Virus record (IMG/VR): IMGVR_UViG_2778261375_000003
Direction: 5' to 3' (one strand)
DNA length: 64,000 bases
From: a virus
Lineage: Duplodnaviria > Heunggongvirae > Uroviricota > Caudoviricetes
In this document: piece by piece, positions 12,512-13,438 of the stretch
How the letters are laid out: each line of letters opens with the position of its first letter
Numbering within the stretch: position 1 is the stretch's first letter
Translations under genes and position numbers: made by a program
Notes under the pieces: generated by a model
What the model was told of the DNA's origin: nothing
Databases searched by the model: none
The model's input: the letters and a program-made list of their open reading frames with translations, nothing else

Positions 12512-13300
12512 GCACAACAGGTAAGGGTATTTTGCGACGTCGGAGATCGCCGAGCTTGGCAGAGGGTTCGAATCCCTACGAAGTACCCTTACCGTTGTGA
12601 TGAATGCGCAGGCTGATGCGCGAAAGACATTGCAGCTATTGCGGAAAAGAGCTGTTCGGCGGGGCAATTAAACGCCCGTGAGAGTCTGAAATAACCGCAA
12701 GCCGGAGATCAGCACCGGTCATCACAACACAACAGGTAAGGGCATTCTCCCTTATGGGGCTTGGCTTAAATGCATCGAGTGCTCTTACCGTTGTGATGAA
12801 GTGCAGCTCTTTGAAGCAACCAGAAGATAAGCATCTGGCTTCACAACATAAACCGCAGGAACGACCAATAAACGGTAGTCCGTATGGAGAACCCCCCGTT
12901 GAGGAAGAGGCCTGGCCGGAACCGTAACCGGCACTACAACGTTGAGAACACTGGCGTAACGGGGTCATATCCCAATCTACGAATAAATGTTGCGTTGCAG
13001 CGTGACAACCAGTGTTCTCAACATTGTGGTGAATGCACAGGCTGATGTGCCGCAACTACAGTAGTGCGCGCTTTGCGGGGCTTGCTACAACCCTGTGTCG
13101 GAGTTCAGCACCGACCATCACAGTTTGATTCTCTGGCATGAGCATAACGCTGAAATAAGTCCAGTCTGGTGCGGCCCGATCACCCGCCGTTAGCTCCACG
13201 AAACGGAGCACGTAACAGGTAAGAGTATTCTCCTGTAACGGGTTCATATCCCAATCTACAGGTCCACCAGGAATGCTCTTTCCGTTGCGGTGAATGCGGC
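12512..13300 (+). repeat. Array of four related ~75-90-nt structured elements (candidate ncRNA or tRNA-like repeats)
   Basis: Element a 12514..12600 (17-bp stem around a GGTTCGAATCC T-arm-like core), b 12726..12798, c 12941..13022 (perfect 14-bp inverted repeat), d 13211..13290; each followed by a GTGATGAATGC-like box and a short GC hairpin. No credible ORF. Confidence 0.5.
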
Positions 13301-13438
13301 TAAGCGCACGCGGGGAAATGGTTATATCTGTCCATTATTTCTCCTTATTTCCCCGTCCACGGTGGATAACCAGCCAAAGGACACCGGGAGGCACCCGGCA
13401 CCGCAACCTTATTTCCCAACCAGTAATGAGGTTAATAA

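Follow-up and report, generated by a model that had tools for sequence, protein, structure and literature searches.

What is encoded between the tRNA-Thr gene and tciA in a P1-type phage-plasmid? In the 64,000-nt stretch of DNA analyzed here (IMG/VR record IMGVR_UViG_2778261375_000003, Caudoviricetes; hereafter the window), a first-pass annotation had described positions 12512-13330, embedded in the tRNA-ban operon, as four related stem-loop elements (a to d) lacking any credible open reading frame (ORF), each followed by a box and a short GC hairpin. Our analysis indicates that the interval after tRNA-Thr consists of structured RNA modules derived from tRNA, of two kinds (A and B) that are interleaved in an array. 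The array does lie at 12512-13330, but its full span is about 11896-13407. The four elements are all present and correspond to B1-B4, but a fifth copy (B0) is located upstream of tRNA-Asn. As for the GTGATGAATGC box and its GC hairpin, they exist but are only the 5' part (acceptor/D-arm) of the second type of module, which closes 50-130 nt downstream. The order of the modules is B0, A0, tRNA-Asn, tRNA-Thr, B1, A1, B2, A2, spacer, B3, A3, spacer, B4, A4:

11896-12076, plus strand: structured leader segment ending in the T-like hairpin CGGGGAGGCAC (folds; distant blastn).
12077-12151, plus strand: B0, fifth long-stem hairpin, AACAGGTAAGGGCG...CCTTTCCTGTT, upstream of tRNA-Asn (repeat family D4; fold z = -4.4).
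12152-12242, plus strand: A0, divergent tRNA-like unit whose closing helix GCGUCUUC/GAAGGCGC surrounds three hairpins, including the T-like ACGGGUAUAUCCCGU (fold z = -3.1).
12358-12511, plus strand: genuine tRNA-Asn(GTT) (12358-12433) and tRNA-Thr(TGT) (12436-12511), inside the array (ARAGORN and Rfam).
12516-12596, plus strand: B1 (element a), stem of the 19-bp class with a bulged A and an interior ending in a canonical T arm, AGGGTTCGAATCCCT (fold z = -4.0; repeats; family covariation).
12594-12728, plus strand: A1, class-1 tRNA-like unit made of GUUGUGAUGA, AU, GCGC-AGGCUGAU-GCGC, a 78-nt insert, GCCGG-AGAUCAGCA-CCGG and UCAUCACAAC (covariance model R1, 51.5 bits, E = 2e-13).
12731-12792, plus strand: B2 (element b), long-stem hairpin (fold z = -4.1).
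12790-12847, plus strand: A2, a variant reduced to 58 nt, in which only the closing helix, a small hairpin on the 5' side and the T-like CCAGA-AGAUAAGCA-UCUGG are present, without insert (repeats D1 and D2; its own fold, z = -0.7, is not significant).
12848-12937, plus strand: spacer module C1, with the hairpin GCCGGAACCGTAACCGGC at its end (also found behind further A units of other phages; fold not significant).
12938-13025, plus strand: B3 (element c), with a different arm sequence, AACGTTGAGAACACTGG/CCAGTGTTCTCAACATT (repeats; fold z = -6.5).
13023-13124, plus strand: A3, class-1 tRNA-like unit with compensatory changes relative to A1 in the D stem (GCAC/GUGC) and the T stem (GUCGG/CCGAC) (R1, 46.3 bits, E = 9e-12).
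13125-13213, plus strand: spacer module C2, ending in the hairpin GCTCCACGAAACGGAGC (which precedes B hairpins in many phages; fold not significant).
13214-13286, plus strand: B4 (element d), long-stem hairpin with the same interior as B3 (repeats; fold z = -4.8).
13284-13407, plus strand: A4, unit of the STnc100/PasD type with closing helix GUUGCGGUG/CACCGCAAC, the T-like CCGGG-AGGCA-CCCGG and a pyrimidine-rich insert containing CUCCUUA (Rfam STnc100; fold z = -3.45; comparison with PasD2).

The repeats by which the four elements had been recognized were all recovered. A repeat search finds the box, CTTACCGTTGTGATGAATGC, four times (at 12588, 12784, 13017 and 13278). Element a has an inverted repeat (12520-12532/12581-12593) and carries the T-loop string that had been noticed in it, GGTTCGAATCC, at 12563-12573. 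Element c has a perfect 14-bp core within a 23-nt repeat that is 91% complementary (12932-12954/13009-13031), and the interior that it shares with element d, GTAACGGGGTCATATCCCAATCTAC (25 nt, 12956-12980), is found again at 13235-13259 with one mismatch. Since GUGAUGA of the box pairs with UCAUCAC located 120 nt downstream, and does so in each copy, the box and its GC hairpin are not appendages of the stem-loops. Phage mEp460 carries a compensated closing pair, GUGGUGA/UCACCAC. Compared with dinucleotide shuffles, the 936-nt stretch as a whole has a folding z of -6.1, and each of B1-B4 has a z of -4.0 or below.

In the window, R1 matches A1 and A3 and nothing else; an A2 homologue in phage Sasha scores 32 bits on this model. 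Copies of A1 that are 94-98% identical are found in lambdoid phages and in prophages of E. coli. A1 and B2 together (196 bp) are missing from reference P1, where B1 is joined to A2 at the conserved junction, and P1-like plasmids harbor many further combinations of modules. Pieces of the 11896-12076 leader recur in unrelated Ackermannviridae, N4-like phages and siphoviruses (distant blastn). The two spacers, of about 90 nt each, end in small conserved hairpins, which many unrelated phages also carry directly upstream of their B hairpins. In the A4 insert, CUCCUUA (13339-13345) is the 3' end of 16S ribosomal RNA (rRNA), i.e. the anti-Shine-Dalgarno sequence. In addition, CCTTATTTCCC occurs twice, at 13343-13353 in A4 and at 13407-13417, just upstream of the ribosome-binding site of tciA.

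Both modules are present in hundreds of phage and prophage contigs. An A unit is closed by a 7-bp acceptor-like helix, on which a T-like hairpin stacks; it also has a D-like hairpin, and a variable insert replaces the anticodon arm. Its D and T loops are complementary over 5-6 nt, and its insert ranges from 0 to about 200 nt and differs between lineages. The 7-bp closing helix abuts the 5-bp T-like helix, which gives a 12-bp stack as in tRNA. We extracted 162 distinct units from about 290 IMG/VR loci. The commonest class reads GUGGUG, A, AU, a D hairpin GCGC-AGGCUGAU-GCGC, a 20-200-nt insert, a T hairpin GCCGG-AGAUCAGCA-CCGGC, CACCAC and A. Among 76 distinct extracts, 95% of the cells are paired and 14 of the 24 pairs show two-sided changes, a value that none of 500 shuffles reaches. 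The D stem is paired in 99% and has compensatory variants (GCGU/ACGU, GCAC/GUGC and GCGA/UCGC), as does the T stem (GUCGG/CCGAC, GCAGG/CCUGC and GCCUG/CAGGC). The loop-loop helix GCUGAU/AUCAGC is paired in 95%, with one double compensatory variant (GUCGA in the D loop and UCGAC in the T loop). Hence, the stem covariation among relatives that had been proposed as a check is strong across hundreds of phage loci for both modules, and the structures are established by it. Two apparent resemblances, to a C/D-box k-turn (GUGAUGA...CUGA) and to rrn boxA (GCUCUUUGAA in A2), were dropped because, by covariation, GUGAUGA forms one strand of a helix and CUGA belongs to the D-like loop.

The distribution of these modules is very wide. 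A 23-nt core of A, GGTGAATGCRYAGGCTGATRYGC, is found in reference genomes of 118 bacterial species. These include Enterobacterales, Halomonas, Marinobacterium, Pseudomonas and Pseudoxanthomonas, many Betaproteobacteria (Achromobacter, Janthinobacterium, Massilia, Nitrosomonas and Thauera), Alphaproteobacteria and a few metagenome-assembled genomes of other phyla. A covariance model built from the IMG/VR A units gives full-length matches in bacterial genomes with 37-64 bits. In 53 distinct units from these genomes, counted on extracts in fixed register since the alignment from the covariance search had misplaced the inserts, closing pairs 3-9 are canonical in 94-100%; pair 4 uses four Watson-Crick types and pairs 3 and 5 use three or four. 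This bacterial sample is independent and therefore removes much of the bias of the IMG/VR filters.

Module B is a 13-20-bp helix with a recurring bulged A and a U.U mismatch, which surrounds a hypervariable interior of 30-100 nt and fills exactly the gap that separates a tRNA or A unit, at its 3' end, from the 5' end of the following one. When IMG/VR was scanned with a pattern of the B arms that left the interior free, at least 120 contigs were retrieved, mostly of lambdoid size (30-50 kb), and the matches listed include at least 66 distinct interiors between near-identical arms. We also used a test that leaves the arms unconstrained: anchored on the A box, a helix was sought upstream, with random positions as control. 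The helix found upstream, which stops exactly at the A unit, measures 15 bp in the median versus 9 bp at random positions, and helices of at least 14 bp are found in 63% of real cases versus 7% of controls. The arms of B fall into at least 36 unrelated sequence clusters. An alignment of 31 arm pairs shows two-sided changes in 10 of the 16 stem pairs; none of 500 shuffles reaches the observed values, which collapse when the register is slid. Furthermore, in many B units a canonical T arm lies at the end of the interior, just ahead of the 3' strand, and B is therefore a tRNA-like body of its own, with an elongated acceptor helix. The ends of the hairpin (AAC...GTT) and its bulged A also resemble the attC sites of integrons, which are single-stranded DNA hairpins with extrahelical bases that go with an IntI integrase, but the core sites CACAAC/GTTGTG are unlike RYYYAAC...GTTRRRY. 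An RNA is preferred over an attC-like DNA hairpin on account of the T arms in the interiors and of the many G.U pairs on the tRNA strand (44 G.U versus 6 A.C), a count to which we give little weight since the selection of units favored G.U.

The first-pass annotation had suggested structured RNAs or tRNA-derived elements, and the tRNA ancestry of the modules is indeed supported by covariation, by canonical T and D arms in relatives and by tRNAs found in the same slot. For instance, the last base of a B hairpin is the first base of a genuine tRNA-Arg(UCU) at three loci (L007, L047 and L055) and of a tRNA-Gly at L014, and a real tRNA is directly 5' of an A unit in Massilia. Within the GUGGUG...CACCAC frame, some elements in the A position show a T loop of 7 nt and a D arm of textbook form; the element of L093 scores 46.4 bits on the Rfam tRNA model and carries a 42-nt insert at the position of the anticodon arm. 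Some P1-like plasmids harbor within the array a class-II tRNA that is absent from the window (L292, 1366-1452; L293, 1322-1408), called "tRNA-Ser" or "tRNA-OTHER" by the Prokaryotic Genome Annotation Pipeline (PGAP), which scores 43 bits on the Rfam tRNA-Sec model, below threshold. Compared with tRNA (RF00005), the A unit has the same 7-bp acceptor and 5-bp T helices, a D hairpin on the 5' side and a T hairpin on the 3' side, and it shares the strand, operon and slot of real tRNAs. However, the units of the window lack an anticodon arm and mostly CCA, the T-like loop of A has 9 nt, and a Watson-Crick helix between the D and T loops replaces the G18-Psi55/G19-C56 elbow. As had been stated for element a, the units are not themselves tRNAs: ARAGORN and Rfam call only 12358-12433, 12436-12511 and 14139-14214, none of the A or B units of the window being called by ARAGORN or reaching E < 10 on RF00005 (Rfam threshold of 29 bits).

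The operon setting that had been proposed is also correct, as Pban, the tRNAs, tciABC, trnI and ban could all be mapped around the interval. The window is a P1-type phage-plasmid in which the dmt end lies at 11682, and the surroundings of the array are as follows:

11661-11706, plus strand: Pban promoters with the C1 operator Op72, where the array-bearing transcript starts (located by way of the P1 annotation, AF234172).
11863-11892, plus strand: strong intrinsic terminator closing a "dicF-like" leader RNA, with the array behind it (terminator scan and P1 annotation of the dicF-like region).
13439-14214, plus strand: downstream context, with tciA (TerB-like; 13439-13864), tciB (DUF3927), tciC and a tRNA(CAT) (14139-14214), followed by ban.

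All elements are on the strand of the tRNAs within the C1-controlled Pban operon, in agreement with the suggestion that they belong to the same transcript. Scans detected no terminator on the plus strand of 11893-14300 and no promoter-like site on either strand of the array, which thus has no internal promoters or terminators. The strong terminator directly after Pban closes what the P1 annotation calls the "dicF-like region" (11801-11892); since it is right behind the promoter, the array, the tRNAs, tciABC and ban all depend on read-through. Elsewhere in the window, Rfam matches the known immI RNAs of P1 at 43439-43628 (isrK, 43439-43516, and C4 antisense RNA, 43541-43628), which are unrelated to the array. 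TerB or tciABC was considered as a general partner of the array and rejected, as this linkage is confined to P1-like loci.

Other phages place the modules in comparable niches, whether lambdoid, Stx-converting (Shiga toxin), P22-like, Ackermannviridae or many others, in late or early leaders. Four lambdoid loci, whose Q genes belong to three unrelated families, have the B-A units between Q and the holin/lysozyme genes, with a tR'-like terminator directly before them. The units adjoin a cI-type repressor in mEp460 and in a Chitiniphilus prophage, B+A1 of mEp460 being in the pL leader. In an Achromobacter prophage, they are upstream of a probable terminase gene and a P22-type portal gene, and in phage Sasha they follow the major capsid gene and precede a terminator. 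Hence, the common setting is the untranslated leader of a strongly expressed lytic-phase operon, and this is also the position of the array in P1. The virulent Klebsiella phage K751 (Ackermannviridae; L294, 1472-4809) has a 3.3-kb ORF-free region with about ten long-stem hairpins of 13-25 bp, T-loop motifs and one class-1 A unit (59 bits), which ends at a tRNA-Met and looks like a much larger array of the same kind. Besides, in one prophage (L041, 2710-2786, minus strand), the Salmonella small RNA (sRNA) IsrJ (RF01393, 60 bits) ends at a tR'-like terminator immediately before a B hairpin and may be the promoter-proximal RNA of the late leader.

What the conserved arms enclose, which we call the payload, is hypervariable. 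A payload of about 65 nt, AATTAAGCGAATRCCGGAAGCAGAACCGG...CGCCGCCCAGC, is carried by a long-stem B scaffold in the P1-like plasmids L292 and L293 (around 1455-1560) and by an A-like GTGCTG...CAGCAC scaffold in four lambdoid contigs (L009, L012, L034 and L050). Thus, payloads appear to move between scaffolds. Furthermore, the A inserts of three loci (L027, L035 and L081) contain a copy of nt 243-282 of E. coli 16S rRNA (compared in L416), which we take to be helix 11; the copy is 85-87.5% identical over 40 nt, and its differences from 16S preserve pairing. This copy is known from one payload class of relatives, and no rRNA mimicry was found among the payloads of the P1 window. Judging from their sequences, certain payloads look like functional mimics or seeds (the CUCCUUA of A4 and the copy of 16S nt 243-282).

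The explanation that we favor, with a confidence slightly short of even, is that the interval is a tRNA-operon-like transcript from Pban that contains three real tRNAs and is cut into stable, tRNA-scaffolded sRNAs. The A unit retains the "top half" of a tRNA, namely 7-bp acceptor-like and 5-bp T-like helices with a D loop that pairs with the T loop; this loop-loop pairing stands in for the tRNA elbow and the insert for the anticodon arm. Under such a model, the Pban transcript would be matured like a tRNA operon by the tRNA/rRNA maturation enzymes of the host: each acceptor-like helix may be cleaved on its 5' side by RNase P, and cuts within the B helices or next to them may be made by RNase III and/or RNase E. 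The modeled geometry (12-bp acceptor/T stack and 13-20-bp B helices) is compatible with substrates of RNase P and RNase III. Nuclease-resistant sRNAs would thereby be released, the conserved scaffold stabilizing and displaying a variable payload. This payload would be the working part, either a base-pairing seed, by analogy with Hfq-dependent PasD/STnc100, or a mimic of a cellular RNA. Payloads are proposed as the working parts because they are hypervariable, are shared between scaffolds and in some cases resemble mimics or seeds. More tentatively, A and B can be viewed as possible members of a large, Proteobacteria-wide phage RNA system with a tRNA-derived chassis, a 5-6-bp D/T loop-loop elbow, maturation by the host tRNA machinery and interchangeable, fast-evolving payloads. 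It would be a natural "tRNA scaffold" used as a display or decoy platform in phage-host and phage-phage conflict, the payloads of which would include seeds for host mRNAs, the anti-Shine-Dalgarno-like tract and the 16S rRNA helix 11 copy.

Several points weigh against this explanation. Processing of the P1 array by RNase P, RNase III or RNase E is something that we purely infer, and RNase P might be impeded if leader-trailer pairing prolongs the acceptor helix. CCA is rarely present on the 3' sides of the units. The A units are devoid of intrinsic terminators and U tails, which form the Hfq module of PasD, so that an Hfq-type function is a weak extrapolation for A1-A3. The fold z values of A1, A2 and A3 are unremarkable (-1.8, -0.7 and -0.65, respectively), and the E-values of A1 and A3 are partly circular because the training set of R1 held P1-type sequences. 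For the GUU at the B/A junction there are two possible partners, the 5' AAC of B and the AAC that follows A, and the helix ends are accordingly ambiguous. Both sets of units were gathered with sequence patterns and pairing filters: the IMG/VR filters for A demanded pairing of the acceptor and T helices and B units were filtered at 13 bp or more, so that the percentages of pairing given for these are partly obtained by construction. No such constraint was placed on the D stem, on the loop-loop helix, on the distal acceptor pairs or on which arm sequences B has.

Could the interval instead encode proteins, or be a relic? Minus-strand ORFs exist at 12636-13055 and 13056-13247 and are annotated plp and upl in AF234172. 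However, neither product has a Pfam match, no promoter-like site was detected by the scan, and PGAP calls no gene in the interval in hundreds of records of P1-like plasmids and genomes. Moreover, the reference Plp runs antisense across tRNA-Thr, the 196-bp A1+B2 segment, which is not a multiple of three, swaps its last ~30 residues for an unrelated sequence, upl is absent from other P1-like variants, and covariation of plus-strand RNA accounts for the same DNA. Plp and Upl are therefore almost certainly not real proteins, and we rejected them as coding genes on frame comparison and lack of Pfam domains. The other ORFs are short, Cys/Ser-rich and without Pfam match; as had been claimed, there is no credible reading frame, and no conserved frame with homologues was found. 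The interval is non-coding. Decaying tRNA genes are a different matter: non-functional pseudo-tRNAs might result from recombination between phage tRNA clusters, the conserved ends being joints. The variable presence of modules among near-identical P1 strains, with joints at a conserved junction, and the continuum from true tRNAs to degenerate forms would fit such scars. However, compensatory substitutions maintain four helices and the loop-loop pairing, the complementarity of the D and T loops is a derived and conserved feature that tRNAs do not have, and the 23-nt core is kept from Enterobacterales to Beta- and Alphaproteobacteria, which makes decay very improbable. Covariation and frame analysis thus disfavor both decayed tRNAs and coding ORFs.

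Two other explanations accept the structures but dispense with working payloads. The array may act only in cis, as a structured untranslated leader that shields the long Pban transcript from Rho and RNases and punctuates it as tRNAs do in organelles, separating the tRNAs from the tciABC-ban mRNA, the released pieces having no function. Its constant location in untranslated leaders, with a terminator just before it and a long operon after it, the lack of internal promoters and terminators and the precision with which B hairpins abut tRNA 5' ends all agree with this role. Nevertheless, we consider it rather unlikely, since it explains neither the near-invariant D and T loops across Proteobacteria, nor the cassette-like variable payloads, nor the units that stand alone and have a promoter and a terminator to themselves (in PasD2, phage Sasha and the Pseudomonas locus L366). 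Alternatively, "top-half" tRNA mimics mass-produced at lytic onset could be decoys that soak up host factors recognizing the acceptor, T arm or elbow and so complement the phage tRNAs; candidate targets are tRNA-targeting defense toxins, nucleotidyltransferases, RNase P and the CCA-adding enzyme. It is exactly the acceptor-T minihelix and an elbow substitute that are kept while the anticodon arm is discarded; in addition, the modules are side by side with phage tRNAs and driven by lytic promoters, and one payload class mimics a 16S rRNA helix. However, no partner protein is known, there is no co-occurring defense or anti-defense gene, TciA being linked in P1-like elements only, and a scaffold acting alone leaves the hypervariable inserts unexplained. 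Moreover, the relatives PasD and STnc100 behave as base-pairing Hfq sRNAs. Decoys are accordingly an improbable explanation, and one for which we would find only a minor place.

The A/B family is thus very widespread and absent from Rfam; we found no earlier description of it in the literature searched and, except for one named sub-type (STnc100/PasD), it is essentially undescribed. In the ban operon of P1, which is among the best-studied phages, about 1.5 kb that had been ascribed to two doubtful ORFs can now be reassigned to a structured RNA array. This suggests that the "tRNA clusters" of phages are partly clusters of tRNA mimics. Models of A and B are needed in Rfam and in annotation pipelines to stop the calling of spurious ORFs such as plp and upl. 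If the display of payloads is true, phage RNA biology would gain a new principle and RNA engineering a ready-made scaffold of natural origin.

How do these modules compare with known RNAs? An Rfam search at gathering thresholds gave no match within the interval, and a search by E-value retrieved STnc100 for A4 only, plus chance matches of microRNA type on hairpins. Rfam likewise has no family for A or B at 16 related loci. Hence, no Rfam family covers A1-A3 or B, and STnc100/PasD are the only named relatives. A literature search found neither a tRNA-like description of prophage RNAs of this kind nor transcript data for the interval in P1.

YrlA, a Y RNA (RF02553), is non-coding too, with D- and T-like arms and a long terminal helix, and it likewise occurs in both bacteria and phages. 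RNase P accepts one YrlA as a substrate, and the group is defined by the permuted order T, acceptor stem-loop, D, by a GNCGAAN0-1G motif and by a gene within 4 kb of rsr (PMC4201824). In contrast, the arms of the P1 units are in tRNA order (D then T), and the motif is only approximated by their conserved 5' GGUGAAUG. The Rfam YrlA model matches only real tRNAs (25.6 bits versus a threshold of 69), and rsr was not seen among the few flanking genes annotated, no search having been aimed at it. Identity with YrlA or Ro-binding Y RNAs was rejected on arm order and score. The put antiterminator RNA of HK022, considered because mEp460 has B+A1 in its pL leader, was rejected as well: R1 gives nothing significant over the whole HK022 genome (best E = 0.08, at an unrelated place).

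ROOL and GOLLD are also phage or prophage RNAs located beside tRNA genes, and they are reported to self-assemble via loop-loop contacts (bioRxiv 10.1101/2024.12.08.627333). The P1 modules are much smaller, modular, found in other taxa and without Rfam match. The A unit has a self-complementary pair of loops, the pairing of which may be intra- or intermolecular; mutual complementarity of the D and T loops may also allow units to pair with one another in trans and form multimers. Functional analogies come from further afield. The TMERs (tRNA-microRNA-encoded RNAs) of murine gammaherpesvirus 68 are viral tRNA-like elements fused to hairpin precursors, the tRNA cluster of phage T4 yields the stable "species 1/2" RNAs, and a synthetic "tRNA scaffold" is used for RNA expression. 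As proposed for the P1 array, there are tandem viral tRNA-like and stem-loop units with ends set by tRNA-processing enzymes, and a tRNA body that stabilizes a foreign RNA put in at the anticodon arm. Other host domains and enzymes are involved, and no homology is implied.

A close known system is STnc100 (RF02076). A4 matches its model with 39.2 bits (E = 1.3e-6) over model positions 31-147 only, below the gathering threshold of 47 bits, and A1-A3 and all B hairpins have no match to it. STnc100 and A4 have in common the closing helix xxUGGUG/CACCAxx, an AAU linker, a 5' hairpin and the terminal CCGGG-AGGCA-CCCGG. A common ancestor of STnc100 and PasD has been proposed (bioRxiv 10.64898/2026.05.13.724894). 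PasD1 and PasD2 (EcOnc13) are described as 172-173-nt sRNAs that were confirmed by northern blot, are stabilized by Hfq, have many partners in RIL-seq (a method that ligates and sequences interacting RNAs) and are among the most abundant sRNAs in these data (PMC8550237). STnc100 RNA was detected in E. coli vesicles (PMC12370729). Published descriptions treat STnc100 and PasD as Hfq sRNAs, and the passages retrieved from them by term searches do not mention a tRNA-like fold, B hairpins or arrays. PasD2 (L296, 858-1029; E. coli E2348/69, 741157-741328) is located directly after a DUF3927 (tciB-like) gene, where P1 has trnI, and shows an apparent -35/-10 promoter of its own, read from the sequence, and a terminator. 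It starts exactly at the closing helix and 5' hairpin of the A4 type, which are followed by a pyrimidine-rich seed and the terminator. STnc100 and PasD share the niche of the P1 units, i.e. the late region of prophages near Q, TerB/DUF3927 genes and tRNAs. PasD differs in that its gene stands alone, has a promoter to itself and carries a 3' seed plus terminator (the Hfq module), whereas the P1 units are terminator-less links of a polycistronic array. Our analysis provides a shared origin and fold for STnc100 and PasD, orphan prophage sRNAs that are abundant in pathogenic E. coli.

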